Below, piece by piece: positions 35,823 to 53,072 of a stretch of 64,000 nucleotides of DNA. The stretch is from IMG/VR virus record IMGVR_UViG_3300037258_000161, positions 32,001 to 96,000 of that record, one strand, 5' to 3'. Origin of the DNA: a virus. Under the pieces are notes generated by a model. The model saw only the letters and a program-made list of their open reading frames with translations. It was not told where the DNA came from and did no database searches. Made by a program: the position numbers and the translations under genes. The stretch's first letter is position 1; each line of letters opens with the position of its first letter.

Positions 35823-35894
35823 GGGGCGTTACTCCTCCGTGAGATGAGAACTGGAGACGCCCCGCAGCGGGGGCAGAGTCAGGGGTCAGGCGGA

Positions 35895-36644: not shown

Positions 36645-36650
36645 CCCCGT

Positions 36651-37783: not shown

Positions 37784-38073
37784 GGGGTGGCTCCGCCGCT
37801 ACGGGGCCGCTGCCAGCCGATGTCAGCGTGCTCCGGGTCGGGCTCCAGGTTGCCCAGCCAGGCGTAGCCGAATGCCTGGAGGATCCACTCCCGCTCCCAG
37901 GAGCCAGGACGGTAGACGGCCTGCTGGGCATGGTCGGCGAGTTCGTACAGGACGGTGCTGATCTTGTGTGCCTGGTCCCGGTACTCCGCGCCCGGCTCGG
38001 CCACGGCGGCGAGGCGCGCTGCTACCAGGGGAGTGAACGTCAGGGTGACAGTGACTTGCCCTGGCTCGGTCAT
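37780..38073 (-). CDS. Hypothetical protein
   Basis: MTEPGQVTV...YRPGSWEREWI; ATGA overlaps. Confidence 0.6.
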   Translation of the reverse strand: MTEPGQVTVTLTFTPLVAARLAAVAEPGAEYRDQAHKISTVLYELADHAQQAVYRPGSWEREWILQAFGYAWLGNLEPDPEHADIGWQRPRSGGATP

Positions 38074-38252
38074 GACGAAGCCTCCGCGATGACGAGGCCG
38101 GCCTGGATTGTGTCGTAGACATCCTGTGCGCGCTGCGGATCCACGGCAGCGAGGACGCGGAGGAAGTCGGCCACGGCTTCCATGTCCCGCGCCTGGAGTG
38201 CCCGGTGAACGCCCTCGGTGAGCTGGTCTGCGGTCCACGGAATGTCGGCCAT
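38070..38252 (-). CDS. Hypothetical protein
   Basis: RBS GGAG; in operon. Confidence 0.6.
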   Translation of the reverse strand: MADIPWTADQLTEGVHRALQARDMEAVADFLRVLAAVDPQRAQDVYDTIQAGLVIAEASS

Positions 38253-38263
38253 GGTTCAGTCTC

Positions 38264-38629
38264 CTAGATCGCCTGGGCGGCCACGACTTCCGCGGCCCGC
38301 GCTACAGCTTCGGGATTCTCCTGCCGCCACTGCTCCCAGGACTCGTCAGTGAGCTTCCAGTTCAGCCATTCGGCCGTGTCGGGGGTGGCATCGAAGGGCG
38401 GTTCCCCGTCAATGCAGCGCTCGCACTGCTGGCAGGGGTCACCGCCAGTCAGGTGCTCACCGCAGAAGTACAGGCCGCAGCCGTCCTCGCCGCCATACGG
38501 TTCGCCGCCGCACACGTAGCCCAGTCCGCGGTCGACCGCCTCGCCGCAGGCAGGCTGATCGCAGATAGCGGGGACGCCGTAGCCAATGTCGCGGCTCCAG
38601 TTGGAGTCGAACCCTACTGACCATCCCAT
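38264..38629 (-). CDS. Cys-rich phage protein
   Basis: RDIGYGVPAICD..AC...DRGLGYVCGGEPYGGE.GCGLYFC. Confidence 0.7.
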   Translation of the reverse strand: MGWSVGFDSNWSRDIGYGVPAICDQPACGEAVDRGLGYVCGGEPYGGEDGCGLYFCGEHLTGGDPCQQCERCIDGEPPFDATPDTAEWLNWKLTDESWEQWRQENPEAVARAAEVVAAQAI

Positions 38630-38665
38630 GACTTGCTCCATTCTCTTGGGTTGACCCTGGTGACA

Positions 38666-39349
38666 CTAAATCGCGTGGACGTGGAGGTACGGGACGGCTG
38701 CCCGGTAGGCCAGGAAGCCGAGGGCCAGCAGGAGAGCAGGTGCGACCACAAGGTTCTCCCGCCAGGTGCCGGTAACGAAGCTCAGCGGGCGGGGCAGGCC
38801 GAAATGGCGCATGGTCACGGGCCACGCGAGCGGGCAGCCCTGCACCGTGATCATGTCCCCGGCGATGTGGGTTGCGCATCCCAGGGCGCAGGCGAGCGGG
38901 ATGAGTGCCAGCGAGAAGCCTTCCCATCCGACAGCGAAAGCAGCACCGAGGGCGAGGAGGTCCGCGAAGTGGCCGCCGATCCGCAGCGCCCGCAGGCCGG
39001 CGGCGAAGGCGAGAGCCAGCAGGAGCGCGAGCGCCCAGTGCCCGGCCGTCGTGTGCCGGAAGGCGCAGCACAGCCACGTGAGGGCGGTGAACACGGCGAC
39101 GCCGAGCACCGAGTGGCTGCCGTGGCGATGCCCCCCGCTGATCTTGCCGATCACCCAGGCGAAGGCCTCGGACAGGAAGCCGAGCGAGCGGGAGACCGTC
39201 GAGTGGCAGGTGTCGATGTCGGGCAGCGTGGCGAAGGCTGCGGTGAAGCCGGCGAGCGCCGCCGACTGGAGCGGCGGCAGGTGCAGGACGAACTCTCCTG
39301 CACCTGCGCCGGTCACCCCGCCGGACAAGGCGTGCGAATGTCCCAGCAC
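38666..39349 (-). CDS. Membrane metal-dependent hydrolase (YdjM-like)
   Basis: GHSHALSG, LPDID, GGHRHGSHS, HIAGDMIT..GCPL.WP. Confidence 0.85.
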   Translation of the reverse strand: MLGHSHALSGGVTGAGAGEFVLHLPPLQSAALAGFTAAFATLPDIDTCHSTVSRSLGFLSEAFAWVIGKISGGHRHGSHSVLGVAVFTALTWLCCAFRHTTAGHWALALLLALAFAAGLRALRIGGHFADLLALGAAFAVGWEGFSLALIPLACALGCATHIAGDMITVQGCPLAWPVTMRHFGLPRPLSFVTGTWRENLVVAPALLLALGFLAYRAAVPYLHVHAI

Positions 39350-39350
39350 T

Positions 39351-39935
39351 TCATCCCCCTGGTTGGTAGAACTGGCGGTCAGCAGCCCGGACGGGTGCCG
39401 ACTGGACGGCCTCGGCGATGCCCCCGTGACGCCGCCGCAGACCGTCACGCATCCGGCTGGCAATGTCGGCCGCAGTAGCCAGTTCCTCGCGCAGCCGTTC
39501 CCGTGCCCGCTCCAGCCTCTGACTGGCGGCCCGGAGGTCTTCCTCTGCCGCACCGACAGCGGAAGCTTTCGCCCCGTGGCACCCGTCGCATGGCTCGTTC
39601 TCCGGCATCCCCCGGGCGGCGTCCAGTTGCTCCTGCGCATCGGACACCTGGCGCTCGGCCGCCCTCACGTCCCGGGCGGCCTGGGCCACGTCCGCCTCGG
39701 CGGCGACCATGTCCATCGCGTCACCGATGGTCTGGGCGTCCACGTCCTGGGGCTGCATCTCCTCGGCCAGTTCCAGGAACTCCCGCTGGAGCGCTTCGGC
39801 TGACACCTCGTCACCGGCTGCGCGGACCTCGGCCGGGTCGGCCAGGTCAAGGGCCGAGGTGTAGGTGGCGTCGCCGTAGCTGCGCGCTCCCCGCTCGGCA
39901 GCGGAGAGGCGTGATGCGGCCTCGGCAGGCGTCAT
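39351..39935 (-). CDS. Helical protein with HGGI..AV..AP...FY tail
   Basis: C-terminus shared with 45203-46354. Confidence 0.7.
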   Translation of the reverse strand: MTPAEAASRLSAAERGARSYGDATYTSALDLADPAEVRAAGDEVSAEALQREFLELAEEMQPQDVDAQTIGDAMDMVAAEADVAQAARDVRAAERQVSDAQEQLDAARGMPENEPCDGCHGAKASAVGAAEEDLRAASQRLERARERLREELATAADIASRMRDGLRRRHGGIAEAVQSAPVRAADRQFYQPGG

Positions 39936-40005
39936 GGCGCGTGCCAGTCAGCCTCGGCGGGGTTGGCATTCCCTCGGCCCTCACTGGACCGAGGTTCCCG
40001 GGTGC

Positions 40006-41256
40006 TCATGCGGCGCTCCGGGTGATTCCCGCTGCCCCGGCGAGTGCCGGGGACTTCTGCGGGCGTGAGACCCCGTGCCCCGGGGCGTGCGCAGGGACAA
40101 GCTCACCAGTGGTGAGCAGGAGTCCCCGGGCAAGGATGTTGCGCGCGGCATTGCGATCTGCGTGATCCTCGTGGCCGCACTCCTGGCACCGGAATACCGC
40201 TTGGCTCTCGCGGTTCTCCTTAGCCGTGTGACCGCAGACGTGGCACTGCTGCGAAGTGAAACGCGGGTCGATCTGGACGACCGTGACTCCGGAGGCGACG
40301 GCTTTGTGCTCTAGCCGCTCAGCTAGCACTCCCCAGCAGGAGGCAAGGATGCCCCGGCTCAGGCTGGCCCGTGCGCGAGCCTGGTTTCGGAGGAAGTTCC
40401 CGGCTAGGTCGGGGTCCGGCTTGGCCGCGGGTCGCCTGATCATGCCCTTGATGTTGAGCTTCTCCAGCACGACCAAGTCGTGGTCGGAGACTATGCGCGT
40501 GCTGATCTTCTCCGCCCAGTCTCTGCGGCGGTCGGCCACTCGCGCGGCCATGACGGCAAGGGTGCGACGTGTGCGCTCACGCTTGGCCGAACGCTTGTGC
40601 TGCCGTGCCATGCGCTGCTGAAGGGCGATGTAGTGCTGGGCTTGGGCGGCCGAGATCCGGGGAGCGCGGTAGTGCTGACCGTCTGATGTGACCAGTGCGG
40701 TACGGATGCCTCGGTCAAGGCCAACCGAACCCTTGGTGGACTCGCGCCTGATGGCAGGCTGCGGTGCGGGGAAGGACACATGCCAGCGGCCGGTCTTGTC
40801 ACAAGTGACCCGGGCCATACGCAGTTCGGTGGGCAGTTGGCGCGTCCACCGGAAGCGGACGTAGCCGCACTTCGGCACGAACACTGCTCCCCAGCGACGA
40901 TTTAGTCTCCGAGCCTTGGTATCGCGGATCACGAAGCCCTGGCGCCCGCGCTTGCTGCGGTAAGACGGCATCCCGGCAACCCTGGACTTGTCGAAAAAGG
41001 CGCCCAGCGCACGGTCGAAATCCCGGAGCGCCTGCTGCTGGACGGACGACGCCCCGGCCGCGAGCCAGGGTTCCGCTTTGCGCGCTTCCGCCAACTGCCG
41101 CTGGCGATCCGCGCTGCCCGGCGCTCGCCCGCGTCCGGGGCGCCACCACGACTGCTGCTCCACGGCGAGGTTCCAGACGAACCGGGCGTGCGCACAGTGC
41201 TCCAGGAGGGTTGCCTCCTGGCGAGCATCAGGGCACAGGCGGTTCCGTATGGCCAT
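40006..41256 (-). CDS. tnpB: RNA-guided endonuclease TnpB
   Basis: HARFVWN; RuvC GLDRG, VLEKL, ADRNAARNI; CHVCG/CQECG Zn finger. Confidence 0.95.
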   Translation of the reverse strand: MAIRNRLCPDARQEATLLEHCAHARFVWNLAVEQQSWWRPGRGRAPGSADRQRQLAEARKAEPWLAAGASSVQQQALRDFDRALGAFFDKSRVAGMPSYRSKRGRQGFVIRDTKARRLNRRWGAVFVPKCGYVRFRWTRQLPTELRMARVTCDKTGRWHVSFPAPQPAIRRESTKGSVGLDRGIRTALVTSDGQHYRAPRISAAQAQHYIALQQRMARQHKRSAKRERTRRTLAVMAARVADRRRDWAEKISTRIVSDHDLVVLEKLNIKGMIRRPAAKPDPDLAGNFLRNQARARASLSRGILASCWGVLAERLEHKAVASGVTVVQIDPRFTSQQCHVCGHTAKENRESQAVFRCQECGHEDHADRNAARNILARGLLLTTGELVPAHAPGHGVSRPQKSPALAGAAGITRSAA

Positions 41257-41273
41257 GTTGTACATTGTACTGC

Positions 41274-41426
41274 ATGGCACGACAGACTGAGCGGCTTGAC
41301 CTGCGGATAGACCCGGAACTCCGGGAAGCAATCGAGCGGATAGCCCAAGCGAAGGATCGCTCCGTTGCATGGGTAGTGCGGGACGCACTGAGGCGCTACG
41401 TCCAGCAGGAACAACCCCCGGGCTGA
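41274..41426 (+). CDS. Ribbon-helix-helix (CopG/Arc-like) protein
   Basis: RLDLRIDPELREAIERIA...RSVAWVVRDAL. Confidence 0.85.
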   Translation: MARQTERLDLRIDPELREAIERIAQAKDRSVAWVVRDALRRYVQQEQPPG

Positions 41427-41447
41427 GTCCGCTCATCACTTCCCCGG

Positions 41448-41981
41448 TCAGCCGTGGCGCCGCAGGAGCCGTCGCCACGCGGGAACGGGCAGCGCCAGCG
41501 AGGCTTCCGTGTAGGTGCCCGGCTCCCACTGCTCGCCCTCGGTGCGGCCCATGCCGACCACGCGGGCCACGATGCGGTCACCCTCGCGGGTCATGGTGAG
41601 CGCGCCCCGCGTCGTGCCATTGGAGATGGGCCACCAGAACCGGCTGACTACATCGGCAGGCAGGGCGTCCAGCGCCTCAGTGTTGGCCTTGGCGTGGCGG
41701 CAGTGGTTGTCGTCGTTGTCGGCCCACCGCATCGCCTCGTCCAGGTCGTGGTGCTCGCCGTGCTCCGCGAGTGAGTAGCCAACGCCACCCGGGTAGACCT
41801 TCGCCAGCGCGGGGTCGATCTTGCGCAGCAGGTACCTGGTCGCCAGGTGGGATGGCTCGCCGGGGAGTTCGATCCGCACGATGACGTACTTGCCGTCCGT
41901 GCTGCGCCACAGGCCGCTGCGCAGGTCCGTCGTCCAGGTGCGCCCTTGTGTGTCGGTAATCCGGGTGCTGGTGGTGGTCAT
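41448..41981 (-). CDS. Hypothetical protein
   Basis: ATGA overlap with upstream gene; globular composition. Confidence 0.6.
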   Translation of the reverse strand: MTTTSTRITDTQGRTWTTDLRSGLWRSTDGKYVIVRIELPGEPSHLATRYLLRKIDPALAKVYPGGVGYSLAEHGEHHDLDEAMRWADNDDNHCRHAKANTEALDALPADVVSRFWWPISNGTTRGALTMTREGDRIVARVVGMGRTEGEQWEPGTYTEASLALPVPAWRRLLRRHG

Positions 41982-43135
41982 TGCCTTGCTCCTATCTCGA
42001 TGATGTCGGCCCCTTTGCGGGACTCGTAGGCCAGACCGAGCGCATCGCGCGCCTTGTCCGGGCCGATGTGCAGGTCACGCCTCACGCGGGCCAGCGAGAC
42101 GGCCTCCGCGCCGTACACGTCGAGCATGGCTCCGACGTTGAGCGCGAGGTCTTCTGCTGGCATGCTCCGTGAGCGTGTCGCTGAGAGTTTGAGAGCGGGT
42201 GCCGTGCGCGACTTCGTGCGCGCCTCGTGAGCGGGTGCCGGGGTGTCACCGTGACTGATTCCGTCCGTGGGCTCGTGAGCGACGGGCGGCATGGCTTGTG
42301 CTGCATTCGGTGACGCTTCCGGTGCGCGCACCGGAGCGGCCCCGTTGCGGATCTCGGCGCGCTTACGGGTCACCTTCACGGCCACGTCCTCGCGGCGCGT
42401 CAGGCCGTGCACCACCCAGTCCTCAACGGGCTTCTCCCAGGCTGCCGCTCCCTTCCCCTCGGCGCCCTCGGCGACAGCCATCAGGACGGCAGCCGGGGGA
42501 CGCGAGTGGACGATCTGGCGCTTGAGGAGTGACGGGACGCGCAGCCGCCAGAAGATGCCCTTCTGGTCACGGACGAAGTCGAGGGCGTAGCGCCGGGCGT
42601 CGGCGGTCTCCGAGGCGAGCGCCACCTCGTCCTCGGTGACGGCCACCGCGTGGACCGCGGCCTCGGCGGCAAGCACCGGGAGGAAGAACGCGATCGTCAC
42701 CGCGGCGTGGCCGACCATCGCGGGGAAGTTGCCGTGCGCCGCGTAGACGTTGAGGAACAGGCTGGCGGCGGCGAACGGGTACGGCGCCCAGCGGAGCCAC
42801 GCCTTCGGCTTGCCCTTGCGCTGCAGCCACAGCCCGAGGATGTAGAGGAACAGGAACGCGCCCTCGGTCGCGGCCGGGACGGTCCAGGCGTCCGGCATCT
42901 CCGGGGAGAGCAGATCCGTGACCGTGCGGAACATGTCCAGGAAGAACACGGGCGCCAGGCCGCAGCCGAGCATGATGATGATGGCCAGGAGCGGGCGGTC
43001 CCATGAGCCGCCTGGACGGGACTTCCGGGCCGAGGCGAGCAAGGGCTTCGCGGCCTGGGTCACGGCGGCCACGAGGAACGCCGCGGCGGCGATGCCGAGC
43101 GTGAAGCCCAGCGGAATGTTCGGGATGGCAGGCAT
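41978..43135 (-). CDS. Spd-like (DUF2637-type) multi-pass membrane protein with C-terminal HTH
   Basis: 4-5 transmembrane segments; SLARVRRDLHIGPDKARDAL; directly follows the FtsK-like gene. Confidence 0.65.
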   Translation of the reverse strand: MPAIPNIPLGFTLGIAAAAFLVAAVTQAAKPLLASARKSRPGGSWDRPLLAIIIMLGCGLAPVFFLDMFRTVTDLLSPEMPDAWTVPAATEGAFLFLYILGLWLQRKGKPKAWLRWAPYPFAAASLFLNVYAAHGNFPAMVGHAAVTIAFFLPVLAAEAAVHAVAVTEDEVALASETADARRYALDFVRDQKGIFWRLRVPSLLKRQIVHSRPPAAVLMAVAEGAEGKGAAAWEKPVEDWVVHGLTRREDVAVKVTRKRAEIRNGAAPVRAPEASPNAAQAMPPVAHEPTDGISHGDTPAPAHEARTKSRTAPALKLSATRSRSMPAEDLALNVGAMLDVYGAEAVSLARVRRDLHIGPDKARDALGLAYESRKGADIIEIGARQ

Positions 43136-43140
43136 GGGTT

Positions 43141-45198
43141 CTAGGCTCCCGTGGCTTCGGACTCAGTGTGATCAGAACCGGACACAACGTGCAGGGATGC
43201 GCGCACTGGGGCGTATGTGCCGTGCTTTGTCTTCGTGATGCGCCCGGCCTCGGTCAGGCTGCGGAGCGCGTCACGCCAGGCGCCCATGCTGAACGGCTTC
43301 GCGCGGCCCCACTGGCCGGTGACGAGCTTCCCGGCCCGGATGATGATCTCCCCGCGGTCAAGTTCGGCGCCTGCCTCGTCCAGAACGGCGAGAATGGCGT
43401 CCGCGGCGGTGCGCCCGGGAGGGGCTTCGTCGTCTTGCGGCGGGACGGCAGCGAGCGGAGCAGCGGACGGGATTGCCAGCTGGACGCCGCCCTGCGCCAT
43501 TGCGCGGTCCATCGCCTCGCGGAACCTGTCGTCCAGTGCGGGCACGACAGGGTTGCAGCGCTTCATCGCCTTCGGCACCAGGTCGGTGCGCATCGGCGCG
43601 TCGGGACGGTTGTCCGGGCCGACTATGTAACCCAGCCCGGCCGTCTCCTTGCCGTCGGCGAAGTACTGGGGGATTAGCGACGGGTCCTTCTCCAGGCCGA
43701 GCATCCCGCCGGCGACCCGGTTGGCGGTACGGCCACTCCACGCATTCCCGCCGCGGAGCATGTCCCGGAGGGCCTGCTCGCCGCCGAGTTCGGAAAGACC
43801 CGGCAGGTGGGTCGCCAGCCACATGGCCTCGCCGGTCTTGCGGCCCAGGCGCCCGATGTCCAGGGTGAGCTGCACCGCCTTCCGGTCGTCCTTCGAATCG
43901 CCGGCGAGCAGCATGTGCGCCTCATCGAAAATGACCAGGACGATGGGCAGGCCCGTCAGGACGTGGTCGAACATCCCCATGCCGCGCATCGGCACCCCGT
44001 CGTCGTCCCACTTCAGGCTGGAGAGGTAACGGGAACGGTCCAGCATCCCGGCGTGCAGGCCGCGGAGCATGTTCAGGCACTCCGGCTTCCCGGCGGCATA
44101 GAGGCAGCGGTCGCGCCAGTACGGAAGGGACTGCCCTTCCTGCGGGTCCAGGACCACGGGGACGATGTAGCCGCACTCGATGGCGATGAACAGCAGCAGG
44201 TTGAGCACCTCGGACTTACCCGACCCCGTGGTTCCGCTGATGAGGGCATGGCGCGTACCGAAGCGGGGGGTGAAGAACTTGAAGTGCGCGGCGGACCCGT
44301 CCGCGAACCGGCCGACGATCGCCGTGCCGGTCTGCGGGTCGATCCCCTTGCCATTCCATTCCCGGGTCCGCATGAGGGTGTCGCGGCCGAGGACGGTCAG
44401 GTAGCCGCTGGAGGTGATGCCGTCGGCAGACCGCTCGGCGTAGGCCTCGGTCATCGGCTTGTGCCAGGCGCCGGCGATGTTCTCGGGGGCGGACACGATG
44501 TTGCCGATGGTGGTCTTGATGCCGTCGGTGCGGACCGGGTAGCGCCTGCCGCCTCCGGGGAGTTCCTCCACCATGCCGAGGCTGGCGTTCCAGCGCTTCT
44601 CGGCAGTCAGCAGGTTCCACCGCACGTAGTCGTTCTGCGGGGCGGCAGCAGGGGGCGCTTCCTCGGGGATGCGCCGGAAGTGCCGCACCCACGGGACGAT
44701 CACCACGAGGGCGCAGACGGCCAGGACGGCCCGGTAGGCGGCCACGAGCAGGTGCGGCCACGGCGGGGCGAAGCCCGTCAGGCACAGCACGGGGATCCAG
44801 AACGCGGACAGGACAGCCATCGCCTGCCACGCGTGATGCCTGAAGCCGTCCATGTGGCGGGTGAACAGCCAGATCCCCGCCGCGGTCAGGCCGGCGAGGA
44901 CGAGAGCGGCCTTGATGTTGTGCGCGGTGCCGGTGCCCAGTCCCGCTGCCAGCACCCAGGCAGCCCAGGCGAACGGCGGCAGGAAGCGGCGGAAACGGTA
45001 GGCGCGCGTCTTGCCGAGGAAGCCGTTCACCTGCGGCGCGGCGGTCACGGGAGCCGCGCCGGGCTGGGCGGCGACCTGGCGGGCGACCTCGCGGACGAGT
45101 GCCTTCTGCTGGCGCTTGCCGAGGTTGATCTGGTGGGCAGGCTTGGGCTGGCCCCGCCGCCAGCGCGGGACTTCCTTCTTGGCCTGACGGCGGGGCAT
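43141..45198 (-). CDS. TraB-like FtsK/SpoIIIE DNA translocase
   Basis: N-terminal transmembrane segments, Walker A GTTGSGKS, Walker B IFDEAH, GRKTG, C-terminal winged helix. Confidence 0.85.
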   Translation of the reverse strand: MPRRQAKKEVPRWRRGQPKPAHQINLGKRQQKALVREVARQVAAQPGAAPVTAAPQVNGFLGKTRAYRFRRFLPPFAWAAWVLAAGLGTGTAHNIKAALVLAGLTAAGIWLFTRHMDGFRHHAWQAMAVLSAFWIPVLCLTGFAPPWPHLLVAAYRAVLAVCALVVIVPWVRHFRRIPEEAPPAAAPQNDYVRWNLLTAEKRWNASLGMVEELPGGGRRYPVRTDGIKTTIGNIVSAPENIAGAWHKPMTEAYAERSADGITSSGYLTVLGRDTLMRTREWNGKGIDPQTGTAIVGRFADGSAAHFKFFTPRFGTRHALISGTTGSGKSEVLNLLLFIAIECGYIVPVVLDPQEGQSLPYWRDRCLYAAGKPECLNMLRGLHAGMLDRSRYLSSLKWDDDGVPMRGMGMFDHVLTGLPIVLVIFDEAHMLLAGDSKDDRKAVQLTLDIGRLGRKTGEAMWLATHLPGLSELGGEQALRDMLRGGNAWSGRTANRVAGGMLGLEKDPSLIPQYFADGKETAGLGYIVGPDNRPDAPMRTDLVPKAMKRCNPVVPALDDRFREAMDRAMAQGGVQLAIPSAAPLAAVPPQDDEAPPGRTAADAILAVLDEAGAELDRGEIIIRAGKLVTGQWGRAKPFSMGAWRDALRSLTEAGRITKTKHGTYAPVRASLHVVSGSDHTESEATGA

Positions 45199-45202
45199 CG
45201 GT

Positions 45203-46354
45203 CTAGCTCCCTACGTAGAAGTCGGTCTCGGCGGGACGGGGGATCGGGGCGTCATCGACAGCAGCCTTGATGCCGCCGTGCTCCTTTGTGAGGGCGTCCC
45301 TGACGGCGACTGCCTGCTCGGCAATCGCTTTGTGGTCCTCCTCAGCCTTCTTGAGCTGGTCAACGAGGTCCATCTGCGCGGTCATGGTGCCGCCCTGGAC
45401 GCCGACTGCCTGCATGTCCTCCGCGTGCTGCGTGGCGGCGGTGTGGCGCTGGGCCGCCGCGGCGGCGTCCTGCTCGGCCTCCTCGGCGCGCTTGCGGGCG
45501 TTCTCCATGACGATGTCGTAGTTGGTGTCTGCGGCCACTTGCTCTCCTTGGGTGGTGGGTGATGCGGTGGTGTCGATCGGCTGCGGGTTGCGGGAGGCGT
45601 CAGCGCCAGGCTCTGCCTCGGCGCGCTCGCGCATGCGATTGAGGATGGCTGCGTCCGGGTCACCGGCCGGGGGGATGTTGCCGTCCCGGTCGAGCGGGCC
45701 GTCGTAACCGGACTCGCGCTGGTCGAAGAACCTCCGGTCAGCGTCACTCTCGGGCTGGCCGTCTACGCGGCGGGTTGGCTCCGGTTCGACAGCAGGGGCG
45801 GCGGTGACGATCGGGGCGCAGCCCGGCAGGCACGGGTAACCGTCAGGGGCACCGCAACTGGAGCACTTCCATCCGGTCGACTGCCGCTGCTCACGCCGTG
45901 CGGCCACCTCGTCGGCTGCCCTCCGGACTGCCTTCCTTCCTGTTGCCGGACTGCCTTTTGCCTGCTGGGCGGCGAGTTCCTCTTCGATCTCGCGTTGCGC
46001 CTCAGCCTGCCTCGTCCGGTGCTCACGGATGGATGCGGCAGTGTCGCGCTCGGTCTCAAGGTGGTTCGTGCGCGCAGCCTCACGGATGTTCCGCTGCTGG
46101 GCGAGAACTGCCCTGTGGGCAAGCCATCCGGCGTGCCAGCCGGTACGGCCAGCCGGGAAACCGTGGAGTCCCTCACGGATCCAGTAGCCGGCCTGCCGCT
46201 GGCGCACTCCGCGCGAGGCTGACTTCCCCGCGCGTCCCGGCGTTGCCTTTGCGGGTGCTGGCGACGCCTTGGGAGCTCCGGCGCGGGCATTCTTGACTGC
46301 GGACTTGGAGACGTCCCAGATGGCGATCACGAACAGGATGGCGATGAGTTCCAT
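45203..46354 (-). CDS. Membrane-anchored coiled-coil protein with HGGI..AV..AP...FY tail
   Basis: N-terminal hydrophobic anchor, CSSC motif, helical C-terminal domain. Confidence 0.7.
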   Translation of the reverse strand: MELIAILFVIAIWDVSKSAVKNARAGAPKASPAPAKATPGRAGKSASRGVRQRQAGYWIREGLHGFPAGRTGWHAGWLAHRAVLAQQRNIREAARTNHLETERDTAASIREHRTRQAEAQREIEEELAAQQAKGSPATGRKAVRRAADEVAARREQRQSTGWKCSSCGAPDGYPCLPGCAPIVTAAPAVEPEPTRRVDGQPESDADRRFFDQRESGYDGPLDRDGNIPPAGDPDAAILNRMRERAEAEPGADASRNPQPIDTTASPTTQGEQVAADTNYDIVMENARKRAEEAEQDAAAAAQRHTAATQHAEDMQAVGVQGGTMTAQMDLVDQLKKAEEDHKAIAEQAVAVRDALTKEHGGIKAAVDDAPIPRPAETDFYVGS

Positions 46355-46362
46355 GTCACACC

Positions 46363-46788
46363 TCAGATCGAGTTCAGGGCGGACACGGCGTTGCCGGTCA
46401 GCGAGAGGATGGCCCCGCGCAGGCCGGCCAGTGCCGGGATCCCCGCCACGCCGACTGCGACGAGGACACCGAGGGCCAGCGCAATCCAGCCGGTCGACTT
46501 CTTCGCCTTGCCCTTCGGGTGCAGGTGATGGGCAAGCACGATGGCCAGGAGGATGAACAATCCGGCGGCGAACCCCGTGCCGAGGGCCCAGCCGGTCACG
46601 GACCCGAAGGTGTTCTGCGCCCAGGTGCCGATGTCAGCGAGTATCCGGCCGATGAAGCCGGACGTCCCGACGATGACGACGCCGAGGAATGCGAGCACGG
46701 CCCGAGCTTTCGCCCAGGTCCCAAGCCAGTACAGGACGCCGAACAGGAGCAGGAACAGCACTCCCAGCTCGGGGACGGTCAGTTTCAT
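46363..46788 (-). CDS. Four-pass membrane protein (Spd-like)
   Basis: Highly hydrophobic; upstream of TraB-like gene. Confidence 0.7.
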   Translation of the reverse strand: MKLTVPELGVLFLLLFGVLYWLGTWAKARAVLAFLGVVIVGTSGFIGRILADIGTWAQNTFGSVTGWALGTGFAAGLFILLAIVLAHHLHPKGKAKKSTGWIALALGVLVAVGVAGIPALAGLRGAILSLTGNAVSALNSI

Positions 46789-46797
46789 CAGGCCCTC

Positions 46798-47232
46798 CTA
46801 GAGCCAGTGGGTGACGAGCAGATAGACGACGACGGCGGCCACGGCACGGGCAGGGGACTCGGCCAGCCACTCCGCGACATCCAGGCACGCCTTGACGACG
46901 AGGTGCAGCCATCCCCAGGCCCGGCGCAGGGCGCGGGCGGCAGGGGACTTGCACTCGCCGGCGGCTTCCACGTGGCGCAGGTGCGCGGAGTGCAGGGAGC
47001 CGTGATCGACCTGGAGCAGGTTCGTCCCCCTCGGGATGACGAACGCGCCGAAGACCCGGGTCAGGAAGTCCCTGGCCCGGGTGTACGGGTCGTCGGGGAC
47101 GGGTGTGACGCGGGCAAGCGGAAGGGCAGTTGGTATGCTTTCGCGCGCGCGCGCCTGGACGCCTTGACTCCTGGCGTCCGGTTCAGGCGGCAGACTGCCC
47201 TTTGCGACTGCCTCACTAGCGCGGCTGGTCAT
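46798..47232 (-). CDS. Membrane protein
   Basis: C-terminal WLAESPARAVAAVVVYLL. Confidence 0.6.
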   Translation of the reverse strand: MTSRASEAVAKGSLPPEPDARSQGVQARARESIPTALPLARVTPVPDDPYTRARDFLTRVFGAFVIPRGTNLLQVDHGSLHSAHLRHVEAAGECKSPAARALRRAWGWLHLVVKACLDVAEWLAESPARAVAAVVVYLLVTHWL

Positions 47233-47527
47233 AGCCGCCTCCGTCCAGGCGCGCGGCGAGCTGCGCCAGGAGATCGCCCGCGTAATCCAGGAGCTGGTCC
47301 GCCTGGGTGAGCGCACGAGGGTCGGCCACGGCCAGCAGGCCGAGACCGCCGGGCCTCGTGTGCCGGTGGATCATCAGCCGCACCGAGGAGCGGAACCAGT
47401 CCGCCTTCACGGCGAACCGTGACGACGCGTCACCGGAGGCGGTGAGCTTGCGCTGCCAGCGCTCCTTGCGCTGCTGCGCCTTCGTCTTCGTCTCGCCGAG
47501 ATCCTGGCGGCGGGTGCGGGTGGTCAC
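47216..47527 (-). CDS. Hypothetical protein
   Basis: Overlapping junctions in operon. Confidence 0.55.
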   Translation of the reverse strand: MTTRTRRQDLGETKTKAQQRKERWQRKLTASGDASSRFAVKADWFRSSVRLMIHRHTRPGGLGLLAVADPRALTQADQLLDYAGDLLAQLAARLDGGGYDQPR

Positions 47528-47742
47528 GAGGCCCTCACCGTGGCGAGCTTCTTCCAGGTGCCGTCAGCGAACGCGACGGCCTCGAACTGGTCCCACTTGC
47601 CGCGGCCCCACTTGTTGCCCGTCAGCCAGCCGGTCAGGATCTCCCTGAGCTCGGCCGGGTTCGCCGGGTCGGCCTGCACCTTGAACGAGTCCTCCTTGCG
47701 GCCCTTGCGGCGGATCTCGATCTCGAGCGGCTGGCTGGTCAT
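47524..47742 (-). CDS. Hypothetical protein
   Basis: MTSQPLEIEIRR...; RBS GGAG. Confidence 0.55.
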   Translation of the reverse strand: MTSQPLEIEIRRKGRKEDSFKVQADPANPAELREILTGWLTGNKWGRGKWDQFEAVAFADGTWKKLATVRAS

Positions 47743-48023
47743 CGGGCTCTCCTGTCGCTGATGTACTCGGTCAGGGACGGGATCCAGCGGTGCCCGATCG
47801 CGAGGATTACCCCGCTGGCAAGGCCACCAAGGAACTGTGCGGGGAGCCCGTAGCCGAGCCACGGGCAGATAGCCAGGTAGGCAGCGAGGGACGGGACAGC
47901 CACGGCCAGTTCCTTCGCCGCCGCCCGGCTTCCGTAGTCGCGCGCCGTGCGGCGGCACGACAGCACCGTCCCGGTAGTGGCAGCGACAGCCAGGATGATG
48001 TAGGCGACGAAGTTCGGGCTCAT
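47739..48023 (-). CDS. Small membrane protein
   Basis: MSPNFVAYIILAV...; about three hydrophobic segments. Confidence 0.6.
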   Translation of the reverse strand: MSPNFVAYIILAVAATTGTVLSCRRTARDYGSRAAAKELAVAVPSLAAYLAICPWLGYGLPAQFLGGLASGVILAIGHRWIPSLTEYISDRRAR

Positions 48024-48421
48024 GCGCGCTCGTTCTCCTTGCCGCGCATCGCGCGCCACGTCTCCCGTAGCGAGTGGCCGGGGAGCGATGAGAGGGAGCC
48101 GACGGGCACCCATATGGCCGGGCCGAGATCCTCGTCCTCGTCGCAGGGCTGCACGAGGGCGACGGAGTAGGGCGCGTCGTCGTGCTCCTGGACGTAGAGG
48201 ATGACCGCCTCGGAGCCATCGGGCAGCGTCACCATCGCGTGCGGCCGGTCCCAGCGGACGCTCACCTTGAAGCGGCGCGGGATGACGTGCCACAGCGGGT
48301 GCAGGTCGATACTGATCCGCTCCAGCACCCAGTTCCCGAGGCCGTCGAGGATGTGCATCGCGCCGAGGATGGCGAGCAGGACCACGATGATGGCCGGGTC
48401 GCCGTGCAGGGTGTAGGTCAT
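48020..48421 (-). CDS. Membrane-anchored hypothetical protein
   Basis: MTYTLHGDPAIIVVLLAILG; ATGA overlaps. Confidence 0.55.
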   Translation of the reverse strand: MTYTLHGDPAIIVVLLAILGAMHILDGLGNWVLERISIDLHPLWHVIPRRFKVSVRWDRPHAMVTLPDGSEAVILYVQEHDDAPYSVALVQPCDEDEDLGPAIWVPVGSLSSLPGHSLRETWRAMRGKENERA

Positions 48422-48888
48422 GACTGGGCGCCTTCCTGGACGCTGGACTTGAGGACGGCAGGCGCGGGAGCGAGGCCCGGGAGGCGGCGCACGTAGACGG
48501 CGGCGATGAACTGGTGCTCGCCCATCGATGAGGTAGCGATGTTCTCGACGGCTTCGACGGTGAGGTTCGCGTCCGGCCCGTACAGGTCGCGGGCGCGGGC
48601 CAGGGCAGCGGATTCCAGTTCCGGGATGCTCGCGGCGCGCACGTTTGCCCGGAGCAGGTCCCGGCCATCGCCCGCAGGGACGGGGGACGCGGTGCCGAGG
48701 TGACGCAGAGGCGGCAGACGCAGCAGCAGCGAGCTCAGCACGTTCAGAGTGCAGGTCAGGACCGTGATGGTGCCGAGGGCGGCGAGGACGATAATGAGCC
48801 AGCCCAGCCAGCCGAAGTCGTTGGCGAGGAAGAAGAACGGCGCGGCCCACCATGGGTGAGGGCCGAAGGTGCCCGTGATGTCATGCAT
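48418..48888 (-). CDS. Membrane protein
   Basis: GWLGWLIIVLAALGTITVL. Confidence 0.55.
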   Translation of the reverse strand: MHDITGTFGPHPWWAAPFFFLANDFGWLGWLIIVLAALGTITVLTCTLNVLSSLLLRLPPLRHLGTASPVPAGDGRDLLRANVRAASIPELESAALARARDLYGPDANLTVEAVENIATSSMGEHQFIAAVYVRRLPGLAPAPAVLKSSVQEGAQS

Positions 48889-49062
48889 GGCGGGTGATCG
48901 CTTCCTGGGAAGTGGGAGCACAGTGAGCCGCAGCGCTGGGCGTCCGGCTCACTGTGCGACTGGGGGGCGGGAACTTTGCCGCGTAGTACGCCCGGTAGCG
49001 GTCCAGTTCCAGGTCACGGGGAGCGGTTACCCATGCAGCATGGGGGTCGGTGGTCGTGGCGT

Positions 49063-49650
49063 TCATGACGCGCGCACCTCCTGTGCTGCGAACCGCTCAA
49101 GCGCGGGCCAGAGCAGGTCGTTGCGGCCCCACCGGGGGTCGATGACGGTGACCCGGAATGCCCGGCAAAGGGCGTCCACGGCGTCCGCGTGGCAGATGCC
49201 GTAGCCCACGTGCGGGTCGCGGAGGTCGCGGCGCGGCAGCTGGGCGCCGAAGCGCGTGTAGGCCGCACCGTTGTGACGGGTGACGACGTGAGCCTTCCCG
49301 TAGCGCACGCGGCGGCGGGACGACCGCTGGGCGATCACGATGAGGCCGGTCCCGTCCGTCTCCCGCAGGATGCGGCCGAGGACACCGGGACTGGCGAAGC
49401 CTTCCACGGCTGCCCGCTGCTCCCATGTCCCGTCACCGGAGTACCCGGGCTGCGAGCAGTCCGTGACGAAGCCCGCGCGGTTGCAGGCAGCGAGGGCGCC
49501 GGTGAGCGGGCACGTCTCCTCGTCGGGGCCGCAGTTCGGGGCGTAGGCCGGCTGGGACATGATGTCCCCTTCCAGCCACTGGGCCGTCAGGTTCCCGAGG
49601 TCGGCGAGCGTGCGGGCCGAGGCCCAGCGCTTGCGGTCGGCGCGGTTCAT
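49063..49650 (-). CDS. DUF6919-like protein
   Basis: ARTLADLG.LTAQWLEG...DEET...NRAGFVT..SQPG...QRAAVEGF. Confidence 0.7.
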   Translation of the reverse strand: MNRADRKRWASARTLADLGNLTAQWLEGDIMSQPAYAPNCGPDEETCPLTGALAACNRAGFVTDCSQPGYSGDGTWEQRAAVEGFASPGVLGRILRETDGTGLIVIAQRSSRRRVRYGKAHVVTRHNGAAYTRFGAQLPRRDLRDPHVGYGICHADAVDALCRAFRVTVIDPRWGRNDLLWPALERFAAQEVRAS

Positions 49651-50099
49651 CGCTCGCCCTCCGCCGTGATCCGCTGGTACTCGTCCTGCGGCCAGAGGTC
49701 CAGTGACCAGCCGGCGAGCATCACGTCGTCCTGCGCACCGAGGGGAAGGGACTCCGCCTCAGGGTGGCCAGCCGGGGGACCGTAGTCCTCGTCCGGGGCG
49801 CTGGCGGGCGGGGCGCCGTCCCGCAGCCATGCAGGCACCGGCCGGTCCTCGGCCTTGTAGGTGCAGGCGATGACGTCGCTGATGTTGCCGACACGCTCGG
49901 CCATCGCGGCGAAGCAGGCACGCCAGTGCAGCGGGACCTGCTCCGGTTCCGGGCGGGGTGCGTGGCGCTGGGCGCGGCGCATGATCTTCTGCTGCAGGAT
50001 GGGGTCCACGGTTCCGGCCTTCCGATCCAGGCTTGGAGTCCGAGCCCCTGTGATGCCGGTGACACGGCATCCGGGGGCGCTTTTCGTTGCGGGGCTCAT
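49647..50099 (-). CDS. Hypothetical protein (start uncertain)
   Basis: ATGA overlaps on both sides. Confidence 0.45.
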   Translation of the reverse strand: MSPATKSAPGCRVTGITGARTPSLDRKAGTVDPILQQKIMRRAQRHAPRPEPEQVPLHWRACFAAMAERVGNISDVIACTYKAEDRPVPAWLRDGAPPASAPDEDYGPPAGHPEAESLPLGAQDDVMLAGWSLDLWPQDEYQRITAEGER

Positions 50100-50305
50100 G
50101 ACGGGCGCCCCTGGCGGTGATAGTCGCGGATGATGTGACCGGGGGAGTTCAGCCGCTGCGCTTCCCAGGTGACACCCTCAGTGCAGTCGTTGTGTGGTCC
50201 GTCGTGGCCGTCGAGCAGGTAGCAGCGCAGCGTGGCGAACATGGCGCGCTCGCCGCCGACAGGGCGTTCGGCGGCGCACTGGATTCCGGTGACTGGCTGG
50301 GTCAT
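50096..50305 (-). CDS. Small Cys/His protein
   Basis: C...C.L..GHDGPH motif. Confidence 0.55.
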   Translation of the reverse strand: MTQPVTGIQCAAERPVGGERAMFATLRCYLLDGHDGPHNDCTEGVTWEAQRLNSPGHIIRDYHRQGRPS

Positions 50306-50457
50306 GACACCACCGCCCGGCGCTTCTCGCAGCAGTCCCAGCAGATGAGCGGGCCGGTGGCCGACTGCCAGTAGGTCTCGCCTGGCTTCTGGCCGCAGTC
50401 CTCACAGAGGTTGCGGGCCTTGCGCTGGCTGCGGACCCAGTCGGGGAGGCGGGTCAT
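50302..50457 (-). CDS. Small Zn-finger protein
   Basis: CEDC...CWDC; ATGA overlaps. Confidence 0.55.
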   Translation of the reverse strand: MTRLPDWVRSQRKARNLCEDCGQKPGETYWQSATGPLICWDCCEKRRAVVS

Positions 50458-50717
50458 GACGTGCTCCCGGTCGTTTCCGGCCATGCGGTGAACGCGTCCA
50501 CCCAGGCGACGGGCACGAGCCACTTCTCGCCGATGCGCTTGGCCGGGACCTCGGACGGGTCCGCAAGGTGGCGGCGCTTGAGGTGGGCGACGGAGACGCC
50601 GAGAATGCGGGCTGCCTTGGCGATCGGGTACATCCGCGGCTCCGGTGCACTAGGCGGCCGGGAAGCAACTGAGGCGGAATCAGCGCTCAAGGTCACTCCC
50701 GGGGTCCAGTGGCTCAC
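50454..50717 (-). CDS. Excisionase-like HTH protein
   Basis: YPIAKAARILGVS...VPAKRIGEKWLVP. Confidence 0.75.
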   Translation of the reverse strand: MSHWTPGVTLSADSASVASRPPSAPEPRMYPIAKAARILGVSVAHLKRRHLADPSEVPAKRIGEKWLVPVAWVDAFTAWPETTGSTS

Positions 50718-50823
50718 TCATCGCCCTTATGATGCCTCACCGTTCTAGCACTGTCAACACTTACATAAGGGTGTTGTCGCGTAGTTACTTTGCCGGCAGA
50801 GTTGGAAGACCTACGCTGTAGGC

Positions 50824-51213
50824 GTGACGAAGGGGCAGAGCGCGCACGAGGAGATCGCGGCCGGGATACGCAAGCGCATCCTGAGCGGCGACCTGGCGCC
50901 CGGAGACCGGGCCGTGGCATCACTGGACGCGGCGGCGGCCGAGCATGGCGTGGCAGTCGGCACGGTCCGCGAGGCACTGCGGCTGCTCGCCGGCGATGGG
51001 CTGGTCGTGACCCGGCCCGGCAAAGGCTCGTTCGTGATCGCGGCGGACCTGGCGGCGGACGGCACGGAGGGTGGTGCGCCCATCAGCCTCGCCGACGTGC
51101 GCAAGCTCCAGGAAGACGTCGCCGGCCTGAAGGCTGACGTCGCGGAGCTCCAGTCACAGCGGGGAATCAGCAGGGGGCGGAAGCGGGAGCGCAGCAATGA
51201 GAAGTCTGGCTAA
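50824..51213 (+). CDS. GntR-family regulator (Kor/TraR-like)
   Basis: IAAGIRKRILSGDLAPGD...GTVREALRLL..DGLV..RPGKGSFV; leaderless; divergent from the TraB operon. Confidence 0.9.
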   Translation: MTKGQSAHEEIAAGIRKRILSGDLAPGDRAVASLDAAAAEHGVAVGTVREALRLLAGDGLVVTRPGKGSFVIAADLAADGTEGGAPISLADVRKLQEDVAGLKADVAELQSQRGISRGRKRERSNEKSG

Positions 51214-51979
51214 CGCAGAAGTCATCAGCCTTGCGGCCAGGAGGGCGAGCCCGCCGGACTTCCGCGGCGTGGCATCATCCCAGTTCCGGGGCGCCCGGGA
51301 GAAGCTCGGCGTCGGTCAGGAGGAGTTCGCGGAACTTCTCAGCGACATGACCGGCTGGGATGTTGACCCCGACCTCATTGGCCCCTGGGAGCAGGGGCGC
51401 GGCATCCCGACCGCTGACGTCCTGCTCGCTGCCAGGCACCTCGCCGGCGAGGAGGCAGCCGAGCCGTCCGGGGTCCTGCTGGCAGAGGTGCCGCAGGGTT
51501 TCCCGGCGCAGGCACTCGCCGGCTGGTGGCTGACCTGTTACGACTTCTCCCACGCCGGCGAGCGCCGGTACCACGCTGACGTGGCCTGCGTGAGTGCAGT
51601 GACCGGGCGCAGCGTGCGGGTCACGAACTACCCTCCGCAGCCCCGGACCGAGGGCCGCGCGTCCGGGTTCAGGAATGAAATCGAGGCCCAGCTGGCGAGC
51701 CGCCACCTGATGGGGCACTGGCGCAATGTCAGCGACACGCGGTACTTCGGTACCCTGCATCTCGCCGTGCTGCCCGGGGAGACCATCATGGATGGCTACT
51801 ACACGGGGTTCGCCAGCGACATCCAGGTCTCCGAAGGGCACTGGAAGTGGGCACGGCTGGACACGGAGACCGCGCCGCAGATGGCCTTGCGGGAGCCGGC
51901 CGCCCTGCACGGCCTCATCATGGAACGCTCGCAGGACGACCCGCCGCTGGAACTGGCCGAGATCGGGGAGGATGCCTGA
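51197..51979 (+). CDS. XRE HTH fused to a predicted beta-barrel domain
   Basis: AREKLGVGQEEFAELL...WEQG; LAGWW...GHW...MDGYY.G...GHWKW. Confidence 0.75.
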   Translation: MRSLANAEVISLAARRASPPDFRGVASSQFRGAREKLGVGQEEFAELLSDMTGWDVDPDLIGPWEQGRGIPTADVLLAARHLAGEEAAEPSGVLLAEVPQGFPAQALAGWWLTCYDFSHAGERRYHADVACVSAVTGRSVRVTNYPPQPRTEGRASGFRNEIEAQLASRHLMGHWRNVSDTRYFGTLHLAVLPGETIMDGYYTGFASDIQVSEGHWKWARLDTETAPQMALREPAALHGLIMERSQDDPPLELAEIGEDA

Positions 51980-52393
51980 ATGGCGCTCACCAGGGAGCAT
52001 GTCGAGGACGTCATCGCCACCTACATCCAGGCGTGGCAGCAGCAGGACCCGGATCTCATCGTGACGATCTTCACCGAGGGCGCCCGGTACCACGAGCGCG
52101 TCATGGAAGCGGCGATCCCGGACCGGGAAGCGATCCGGCGGTACTGGGAAACGAAGGTGGTCGGCGCCCAGGCGAACATCACCTGCAAGCTGCTGAGCCT
52201 CTACGTGGACGGCACCACGGCCATCGCCGAATGGGAAGCCGAGTTTGACGATCTCGTCAAGGGCGCGCGGAAGCGGATGCGCGAGGTGGCCATCCTCGAG
52301 TTCGAGGACGGGCTGATCGCCAGCCTGAGGGAGTACTGGGCCAGTGAGCAGGTCGGGCACCTGGCCTCGGCCGGGAGTAACGGGAGCGGCTGA
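51980..52393 (+). CDS. SnoaL-like / NTF2-fold protein
   Basis: Y..AW..QDPD....IFTEGARY...DGLIASLREYW. Confidence 0.85.
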   Translation: MALTREHVEDVIATYIQAWQQQDPDLIVTIFTEGARYHERVMEAAIPDREAIRRYWETKVVGAQANITCKLLSLYVDGTTAIAEWEAEFDDLVKGARKRMREVAILEFEDGLIASLREYWASEQVGHLASAGSNGSG

Positions 52394-52397
52394 CGCT

Positions 52398-52448
52398 CAG
52401 CACAGAAGCACGCCCCGGCCATCGCGGCCGGGGCGTGCTTCTGTGCTG
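52398..52448. terminator. Perfect 23-bp stem hairpin
   Basis: CAGCACAGAAGCACGCCCCGGCC-ATCGC-GGCCGGGGCGTGCTTCTGTGCTG. Confidence 0.8.
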
Positions 52449-52488
52449 GCCCCCTTGCAATCGCCCACCGTAGTGGGATGCTCACAGG

Positions 52489-52755
52489 ATGATCTGGGTC
52501 ATCCTCCTCGGTGCCGCGCTCTTATACGTCCTGTCCTGGTACATCCACCCGCTGATGGCGTGCCCGGCCTGCAAGGGCGCTTCCCGGCACTACGGGGCGC
52601 TGCACCGCTCCAAGTTCCGCTTCTGCCACGTCTGCGGGGGCAACGGGAGGGCGGTGCGGCCCGGGGCGAAGGTGCTCATGTCCGCGGGACTGATGAAGAA
52701 CGGCGCCGAGCGGACGGGGAGCTACGGGTGGGCGCGGAGGAACCGGCGCCGCTAG
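52489..52755 (+). CDS. Membrane-anchored DnaJ-type Zn-finger small protein
   Basis: Transmembrane segment; CPACKG and CHVCGGNG. Confidence 0.7.
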   Translation: MIWVILLGAALLYVLSWYIHPLMACPACKGASRHYGALHRSKFRFCHVCGGNGRAVRPGAKVLMSAGLMKNGAERTGSYGWARRNRRR

Positions 52756-52847
52756 CGCTTCCAGGACACTAGCCGGATCCCCAGCGACCCTCCGGTGCCA
52801 AGCTGGGCGTCTGCAGCGCTGTCGGCAGAGCGTGACACCCTGGGCAC

Positions 52848-53072
52848 ATGACGCTAGCCCCAGCAGAAGCCGCAGCGCTCTACCGCGATAAGAAGCTCTC
52901 GGCGTGCGAGATCGCGCAGCTTCACAAGCTCACCCCGCAGGGCGCGGCAGCGAGGATACGGACTGGCGGTCTTGGCGGCGTGACGTGGTGCCGGATCCAC
53001 CGCACCTACGAGGACGTGAGCCTTGTCAACGCTGAGGCGGTCTCGTACATGGCTGCCCGCTGGGGTGCCTGA
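52848..53072 (+). CDS. Small HTH protein
   Basis: LYRDKKLSACEIAQL..LT. Confidence 0.55.
   Translation: MTLAPAEAAALYRDKKLSACEIAQLHKLTPQGAAARIRTGGLGGVTWCRIHRTYEDVSLVNAEAVSYMAARWGA

Follow-up and report, generated by a model that had tools for sequence, protein, structure and literature searches.

A plasmid-type membrane DNA pump with helper genes as a native part of a soil actinophage genome

Does a tailed phage that carries the genes of a plasmid transfer system have a second way of spreading, beside its virions? The question is raised by a 64,000-nucleotide stretch of DNA (hereafter the window), bases 32001–96000 of the 108,411-bp virus record IMGVR_UViG_3300037258_000161 in IMG/VR, with a G+C content of 68.6%. 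An operon on its minus strand encodes a membrane-anchored FtsK-type ATPase (43141–45198(-)) among other membrane proteins, and lies divergent from a gene for a short GntR-family regulator (50824–51213(+)). An earlier interpretation made from the letters alone (the sequence-only reading) had taken this block for a Streptomyces-type conjugative transfer module within a phage replicon. Because the genome carries a plasmid-type membrane DNA pump together with helper genes, the phage may also spread without virus particles. Our proposal is that the GntR-controlled, TraB-like pump moves the phage's double-stranded DNA (dsDNA) between hyphal compartments or cells. Judged by analogy with plasmid systems, we consider this moderately probable; the identity of the module and its native status are much firmer than its function. 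Plasmid-phages with such transfer modules, namely pZL12 and PhiNon1, are already known. To these the window phage adds an integrase-bearing member with a plasmid-type dsDNA transfer module and no ParA/ParB matches.

The pump is a dsDNA translocase of TraB-like type with 685 residues, a basic N-terminus, the Walker A motif GTTGSGKS and the Walker B motif VLVIFDEAH. An AlphaFold2 model based on 41 homologues (predicted local distance difference test, pLDDT, 82) divides it into three parts. The N-terminal membrane domain consists of four long helices (residues 66–175), which the hydropathy profile also displays as hydrophobic segments. It is followed by an alpha/beta motor and by a C-terminal unit (residues 598–664) of three helices and a two-stranded wing in the order helix-helix-helix-strand-strand, with a pLDDT of about 90. 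Motifs, model and hydropathy thus agree with the earlier description of a membrane FtsK ATPase that ends in a winged helix and is flanked by membrane proteins, the latter encoded at 41978–43135 and 46363–46788 (four transmembrane helices each), 45203–46354 (one N-terminal helix), 48418–48921 and 46798–47316. Foldseek ranked FtsK motor structures first (6t8o and 2iut, E 1e-13), followed by the coupling protein TcpA and then by EccC and HerA. The C-terminal 84 residues folded alone matched winged-helix domains only (template-modelling scores 0.55–0.69, E 0.01 or weaker); no Foldseek match of this isolated domain reached E 0.001 or better, and none linked it specifically to FtsK-gamma. Weak matches are usual for a fold so small. 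In alignments the domain pairs with the C termini of pSLE1 Tra and a Streptomyces transfer protein, and a role in DNA recognition is predicted for it.

The family to which the pump belongs was addressed with profile searches, profile–profile comparisons and a tree. Pfam covers the P-loop only (FtsK_SpoIIIE, 23.4 bits), and the NCBIfam models of EccC, EssC and TraD likewise align with the P-loop only. The best NCBIfam model was NF041214 plasmid_TraB, matching residues 95–434 with 35 bits (E 5.8e-9). When the 41-sequence alignment of the pump family was compared by hhalign with individual systems, the 654-residue protein of PhiNon1 matched over its full length (E 1e-46, 560 columns). Tra of pSLE1, a close relative of pZL12, followed (E 2e-19, 374 columns), and then a "transfer protein" of a 23-kb Streptomyces plasmid (E 2e-17, 370 columns), both alignments including the winged helix. 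Matches to pIJ101 Tra (E 4e-6, 255 columns) and to the E. coli FtsK motor plus gamma (E 1e-6, 66 columns around Walker B) were far weaker. A maximum-likelihood tree of 42 motor domains, which included chromosomal FtsK and EccC from two Micromonospora genomes, joined the window family, PhiNon1, pSLE1 Tra, the Streptomyces plasmid ATPases and a Micromonospora plasmid clade on a branch with 100/100 support; FtsK, EccC and the long-branched pIJ101 Tra stood on the other side. PhiNon1 was the nearest non-metagenomic branch to the window family. The phylogeny against FtsK and EccC called for by the sequence-only reading, for which a position outside the transfer proteins would have been fatal, therefore came out in its favour. 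Comparison at this level supports the assignment of the pump to the actinomycete plasmid transfer translocases, and not to FtsK or EccC. Neither tblastn of the pump and of the protein encoded at 41978–43135 against 50,697 phage records nor megablast of the transfer block against phages gave a match.

A separate observation concerns plasmids of Micromonospora. In the 70-kb plasmid of Micromonospora sp. CA-246542 (G009:C2; L031, L078) and in similar contigs of 60–90 kb, a gene close to chromosomal FtsK is accompanied, at a distance of about 2 kb, by a second FtsK-like gene that is distantly related to the phage pump.

The layout of the module resembles that of Streptomyces plasmid transfer loci, as had been proposed: pIJ101, pSLE1 and a 142-kb linear plasmid share a pump operon divergent from a GntR gene. 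In pIJ101 the GntR gene korA is divergent from tra-spdA-spdB. Like TraB of pSVH1 and Tra/KilA of pIJ101, the pump combines one membrane-associated FtsK-like motor with a C-terminal DNA-recognition-type domain (PMC4447253). Its genetic setting is alike too: the neighbouring genes encode membrane proteins and are translationally coupled, and control would come from a GntR gene (TraR/KorA in the plasmids) that is transcribed divergently. The best plasmid motor match (42% over residues 286–531) was found on the 142-kb linear plasmid of S. microflavus (NZ_CP109321.1). There, a divergent GntR gene, a DUF2637 protein and a pair of genes for 414 and 128 residues precede the ATPase. That locus is uncharacterised and has no virion genes in the stretch inspected, and its DUF2637 gene lies upstream of the pump, whereas it lies downstream in the window phage.

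Among phages, the closest precedents are pZL12 and PhiNon1, and the novelty implied by the sequence-only reading was overstated, since the former is published and the latter holds a full-length pump homologue. pZL12/phiZL12 of Streptomyces sp. 9R-2 (Zhong et al. 2010, J Bacteriol 192:3747) is a plasmid-phage, and its conjugal transfer is cited in PMC3583192 as requiring its tra locus. The plasmid pSLE1 of S. leeuwenhoekii (NZ_LN831788.1) is described as showing high similarity and synteny to pZL12 (PMC4487206). It is likewise a tailed-phage genome in which a GntR gene is divergent from a 14-gene operon ending in an FtsK-like Tra with a winged helix; the terminase and virion genes follow immediately in the same direction. 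Over the motor, pSLE1 Tra and the window ATPase share only about 29% identity, and their virion modules are unrelated. The window phage shares with the pZL12 type a complete virion operon and a tra locus on one replicon, but not the plasmid maintenance genes (ParA/ParB, RepA): pZL12 and pSLE1 are ParA/ParB plasmids, whereas the window phage and its relatives have integrases and no ParA/ParB matches. PhiNon1 of Nonomuraea gerenzanensis ATCC 39727 is a 59,257-bp "plasmid-phage element" (NZ_LT559120.1; D'Argenio et al. 2016, PMC5431353) that is reminiscent of pZL12, integrates at tRNA-Val and also occurs as circles (PMC5431353). Its 654-residue pump homologue has a transmembrane domain, a motor and a C-terminal domain. 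A DUF2637 gene, small genes and a 396-residue gene just upstream of the pump accompany it, and phage tail and lysis genes adjoin. The differences are a pump only about 28–30% identical, a genome of half the size and other virion genes. The main text of the PhiNon1 paper never applies the terms FtsK or conjugative transfer to this element (PMC5431353).

Three further genes form a conserved core with the pump. Genes were called by third-position G+C (GC3) because the DNA is G+C-rich, and all genes of the operon and those at 38666–41529 lie on the minus strand. Directly upstream of the pump, 45203–46354 encodes a partner of 383 residues. An N-terminal transmembrane helix and a long helical stretch precede its C-terminal tail, HGGI..AV..AP...FY, which is conserved across 13 family sequences. 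Its C-terminal region weakly resembles the 128-residue gene preceding the ATPase on the Streptomyces linear plasmid. A 194-residue helical protein (39351–39935) is a paralogue of the C-terminal part of the partner and ends in the same tail; the two tails are identical at 15 of 30 positions (BLASTP, E 8e-6) and joined by collinear weaker matches. Through this shared tail the two proteins may dock on the pump. When the cytoplasmic part of the ATPase and the C-terminal 120 residues of the partner were predicted as a complex, the score was 0.11 against a mark of 0.32, which counts neither way. The remaining core genes encode a 141-residue protein with four transmembrane helices by hydropathy (46363–46788) and a 73-residue protein (47524–47745).

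Directly downstream of the pump, after a gap of 5 bp, 41978–43135 encodes a 385-residue protein with four transmembrane helices that resembles DUF2637 below threshold (Pfam 16.5 bits, cut-off 22.8); its stop overlaps the start of the next gene by 4 bp (ATGA). It matched the DUF2637 protein of the Streptomyces linear plasmid (BLASTP, E 3e-11 in a small database) and, among all plasmids, gave tblastn hits at E 6e-5; the DUF2637 proteins it matched sit a few kb from an ATPase homologue on two Streptomyces plasmids. Homologues occur in contig G004, and G002 has a gene of the same size. A four-transmembrane protein beside tra, as is typical of SpdB2, is thus present at 41978–43135, and 46363–46788 encodes a second one. 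SpdB2 homologues on actinophages have been proposed to aid the spread of phage DNA (PMC4447253).

Control of the operon is suggested by the divergent gene 50824–51213(+), which confirms the GntR assignment made earlier (Pfam GntR, 47.7 bits). Its product of 129 residues consists of a winged helix-turn-helix and a coiled-coil tail, and shares 38% identity with the N-terminal domain of the pSLE1 GntR protein and 27% with pIJ101 KorA. It is a candidate Kor/TraR-like repressor. The 106-bp control region between the divergent genes (50718–50823) holds the only sigma-70-like promoter site found in 40000–53000, TTGACA-17-CATCAT on the minus strand. An inverted repeat, CAACAC-N10-GTGTTG, spans its -35 hexamer, and a small second palindrome lies at 50811–50823; an operator function is predicted for this region. 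Two other regulators were seen in the genome. One is a second stub GntR protein of 100 residues (57 bits, 60489–60791(-)), which resembles the DNA-binding domain of pIJ101 KorA; the other is a MerR-type protein of 68 residues, the size of BldC (L016:7512-7718(+)). Both have homologues in G002.

A mechanism can be modelled on TraB of pSVH1 and the tra locus of pZL12. The short GntR protein would repress the divergent promoter; upon derepression, the membrane-anchored ATPase would assemble as a ring, and its winged helix would pick the phage's own dsDNA, as an excised or replicating circle. The motor would then drive this DNA through septal cross-walls or into an adjacent hypha, helped by the 383-residue tail-bearing protein, the four-transmembrane 141-residue protein, the 73-residue protein and the DUF2637-like protein. 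The result would be a capsid-independent route of spread beside virions. The phage itself is read as a temperate siphophage, and its host is probably a Streptosporangiaceae-like mycelial actinomycete: the nearest genomic relatives are Streptosporangiaceae metagenome-assembled genomes (49% and 38%), and the host of PhiNon1 is likewise a member of this family.

Several observations weigh against this proposal. The 35 bits of the pump against plasmid_TraB compare with an equivalog cut-off of 800, and pIJ101 Tra, with which homology is marginal, falls on the FtsK side of the main split in the tree, on a long branch. The pump is therefore a distant branch of the transfer ATPases and not TraB in the strict pSVH1/pIJ101 sense; of the earlier TraB label, the grouping with plasmid transfer ATPases in the tree and by hhalign holds, but the strict identity does not. 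Similarly, the regulator is a GntR-type winged-helix protein in the expected divergent position, but a stub of the DNA-binding domain only, without the effector domain of KorA, KorSA and TraR (KorA has 241 residues and the pSLE1 protein 243), so that "Kor-like" applies in part. BLASTP of 41978–43135 against pIJ101 SpdA, SpdB and KilB gave no match, and "Spd-like" accordingly describes position and four-transmembrane topology; pIJ101 SpdB itself lies outside any Pfam family. A search for a clt or TRS (TraB recognition sequence)-like array in or near the module by exact and one-mismatch 8-mer clustering and by the tandem-repeat program TRF found none that was convincing. Two candidates, at 47150–47300 and 39694–39988, were weak, lie within coding sequence and may reflect codon composition. 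The phage's own record gave no match to ParB_N, AAA_31 or CbiA, an absence that is not absolute because the genome is only about 92% complete according to CheckV, and CbiA matched in none of the four records searched; a stable plasmid state as in pZL12 is therefore not indicated. Finally, the mycelial habit of the host is taken from its relatives only.

The strongest rival explanation concerns inheritance. When hyphae form compartments or sporulate, the pump might clear the phage replicon from closing septa or carry it across them, much as FtsK and SffA handle chromosomes, so that each compartment or spore keeps a copy. The combination of an FtsK-fold motor with a winged helix of the sequence-reading type would suit this role, as would the lack of ParA/ParB in the four records searched and the developmental-regulator-like genes of the genome, such as the MerR/BldC-like protein. 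Nevertheless, we regard it as unlikely: the nearest characterised relatives of the pump are plasmid transfer genes and not chromosomal FtsK, and all four records contain an integrase, so that integration already secures inheritance.

Export of proteins is less probable again. The tail motif common to the two proteins that flank the ATPase (45203–46354 and 39351–39935) and conserved across the family could mark them as substrates of an EccC- or EssC-like exporter, and these FtsK-like ATPases do occur among the fold matches. EccC, on the other hand, forms a separate and fully supported clade in the tree, and its NCBIfam model, like that of EssC, reaches no further than the P-loop of the pump. 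Moreover, the pump has one ATPase domain instead of three and ends in a winged helix of the DNA-binding type, and one of the two proteins with the tail has a membrane anchor of its own.

Fainter still is the prospect of a defence or superinfection-exclusion function, in which a membrane HerA/FtsK-like ATPase would block or expel the DNA of rival phages or plasmids. Exclusion genes are frequent in prophages, and PADLOC reported weak HerA matches (best E 3.5e-9, 34 bits, about 60 residues). These matches extend no further than the Walker motifs, PADLOC detected none of the known HerA partners (Sir2, DUF4297 or NurA-like) among the neighbours, and the full-length relatives of the pump are plasmid transfer proteins.

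Recurrence in other phages speaks for the block as a native part of the genome. Pump relatives were found in 11 IMG/VR contigs, seven of which (G001, G002 and G004–G008) were compared in full. The pump and the 73-residue protein occur in all seven (the latter at 34–44% identity by tblastn). The partner was found upstream of the ATPase in five with the window protein as query and in six when the partners of G001 and G002 were used, and the 141-residue protein is present in four (G002, G004, G005 and G006; 44–54%). Overall, the core genes share 37–55% identity with those of the window, and the rest of these genomes is mosaic with little else in common. Three contigs are closed by terminal repeats: G001 (71.7 kb), G002 (105.7 kb) and G006 (51 kb). 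Virion genes were confirmed with PHROGs in G001 and G002, and also in G006 and G007, so that the suggested search for other phage contigs with the same core was successful. The virion types differ, with a terminase of PHROG 979/38 in G002, a PHROG 12 portal and a PHROG 10 capsid protein in G001, and PHROG 9 and PHROG 104 in the window; at least three unrelated virion modules accompany the pump core. Synteny extends beyond the module in G002 and G005, which contain homologues of the YdjM gene and of 36651–37361. A panel of 26 virion proteins from G000–G002 matched three of 22 long loci (among 80 metagenome loci), two of them being G002 and G005, but says nothing on the phage specificity of the family because the panel was too narrow and the flanks too short.

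The edges of the block point in the same direction. No att-like repeats above chance flank it in 33000–56000, and no integrase, xis or rep gene was found at the module edges; the tyrosine integrase and the serine recombinase of the same genome lie about 56 kb away. This agrees with the earlier statement on the edges, and an actinomycete integrative and conjugative element (AICE), defined by its own int/xis and rep beside tra and by att boundaries, is not what was found. Assembled contigs of the probable source soil run tile 33000–52900 end to end at a depth of 8–14, and pieces identical to the phage part as well as to the module occur in a second soil study. Contig depth is thus even, in line with the even coverage that the sequence-only reading had asked for, and the contig is not visibly chimeric. 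Apparent joints in the tiling comprised 18–31 matching letters per side (nearly all 18–22) and were set aside as stray matches to other organisms. These data support the transfer block, at about 41.4–51.2 kb of the window, as a native, conserved part of the phage genome. An IS605-type TnpB at one module edge and the high mosaicism of the remaining genomes could speak for a separate AICE or plasmid fragment riding as a passenger, or for a chimeric contig, but this is very unlikely, because the same core recurs in three terminal-repeat phage contigs with different virion modules, no integrase, xis, rep or att-like repeat marks the edges, synteny continues past the module, and contig depth is even over the junctions.

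About 160 homologues occur in soil metagenomes. A wider reading, which we put forward only tentatively and with somewhat less confidence than the transfer function itself, is that the four-gene core of pump, tail-bearing partner, four-transmembrane protein and 73-residue protein is a cassette shared among otherwise unrelated integrase-bearing soil actinophages, that temperate phages of mycelial actinomycetes commonly have a second lifestyle, capsid-independent spread from hypha to hypha, and that the tail of partner and paralogue is the docking signal. If the module works as in plasmids, it lets temperate phages of mycelial actinomycetes spread without capsid, receptor or lysis, and models of host range, of prophage spread within a colony and of gene flow in soil would change for this group. 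If the cassette reading is true as well, capsid-independent spread would not be peculiar to pZL12, to our knowledge the only such element studied experimentally. The question of transfer is directly testable, because PhiNon1 resides in a cultured strain and has a full-length pump homologue; the partner tail and the recognition site of the pump would be handles for biochemistry.

The remaining genes of the operon are mostly small. Its head gene (50454–50717) encodes a small helix-turn-helix protein of excisionase/MerR-like type, an assignment that had been made before and is weak (Pfam HTH_17, 17.2 bits, cut-off 27). Three small genes follow, at 50302–50523 (with CxxC pairs), 50096–50305 and 49647–50099; they were called by GC3 frame analysis, no function was assigned to them, and searches of this stretch (49647–50523) returned no family matches. 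A DUF6919 protein (49063–49650; Pfam 162.9 bits) has counterparts next to the module in G002 and G004 (tblastn, 53% and 41%). Next come a membrane protein with one or two transmembrane helices by hydropathy scan (48418–48921) and, beyond the 73-residue protein, two small genes at 47216–47527 and 46798–47316, the latter with a C-terminal transmembrane helix by hydropathy and a match in G001. The last gene before the insertion sequence (41448–41981; GC3 frame analysis) encodes a 177-residue protein without assigned function or family matches.

The downstream edge of the module is marked by the IS605-family TnpB (OrfB) gene at 40006–41529 (Pfam OrfB_IS605 and Cas12f1-like_TNB), which the sequence-only reading had left unmentioned; it lies outside the transfer module and is inserted between it and the YdjM gene. 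Contig depth is slightly lower there (7.9 versus about 11). In G002 the module abuts YdjM directly, without TnpB, and a TnpB homologue occurs elsewhere in that genome. The YdjM-family membrane protein (38666–39340; Pfam 70.9 bits, from residue 100 of a long open reading frame) shares 50% identity with its counterpart in G002.

The description of a tailed phage with a complete virion operon was confirmed with PHROGs, which identified a full siphophage late operon at 1–26713(-). On this strand it encodes the large terminase subunit (24598–26280), portal (22564–24177), protease (21761–22567), scaffold (20496–21209), major capsid (19441–20442), major tail (14619–15224), tape measure (9658–13686), Dit (7162–9645) and fibre (3293–5119) proteins. 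A GH25 lysin gene lies at 32745–33473. The terminase is of the actinophage type, with 52% identity to that of Corynebacterium phage Juicebox. The cI/cro-type switch reported earlier is represented by a Cro/C1-type helix-turn-helix protein at 62826–63107. The record has no terminal repeat, and its part outside the window contains a Toprim/AAA_25 primase-helicase-like gene, RtcB, a CCA/HD enzyme, tRNA-Pro, and the tyrosine integrase and serine recombinase at 15.4–17.6 kb of the genome.

Some minor observations concern the rest of the genome. Outside the window, at 10.8–15.2 kb of the genome (L014:10776-15167), the RtcB ligase, tRNA-Pro(TGG) and the CCA-adding/poly(A) polymerase-HD enzyme form an RNA-repair cluster, and the tyrosine integrase and serine recombinase lie side by side after it. 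An Rfam search at gathering thresholds gave this tRNA-Pro as its sole match and no Y RNA in the window. A Ro60-like (TROVE) protein of 552 residues is encoded at 58597–60255(-) and has a 54% identical homologue in G006. An intein that carries Hint and LAGLIDADG domains splits an AAA_24 (Sak4/RecA-like) ATPase of 811 residues (L016:2681-5116, outside the window).

The late region, otherwise on the minus strand, is broken by a plus-strand island (28258–31426(+)) between the small-terminase region and the genes for lysis; this island holds genes for a 307-residue protein of unknown function, a DUF3631 protein (396 residues) and a GIY-YIG protein (288 residues). Directly after a SnoaL-like gene (51980–52393), a perfect 23-bp inverted repeat with a 5-nt loop (52398–52448) probably terminates a GntR-HTH_31-SnoaL operon. 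In the gap upstream of the lysin gene, the palindrome TCCCGGGAA occurs four times within 73 bp (32509–32581), with only five copies in the whole genome, and this cluster is a likely operator array.

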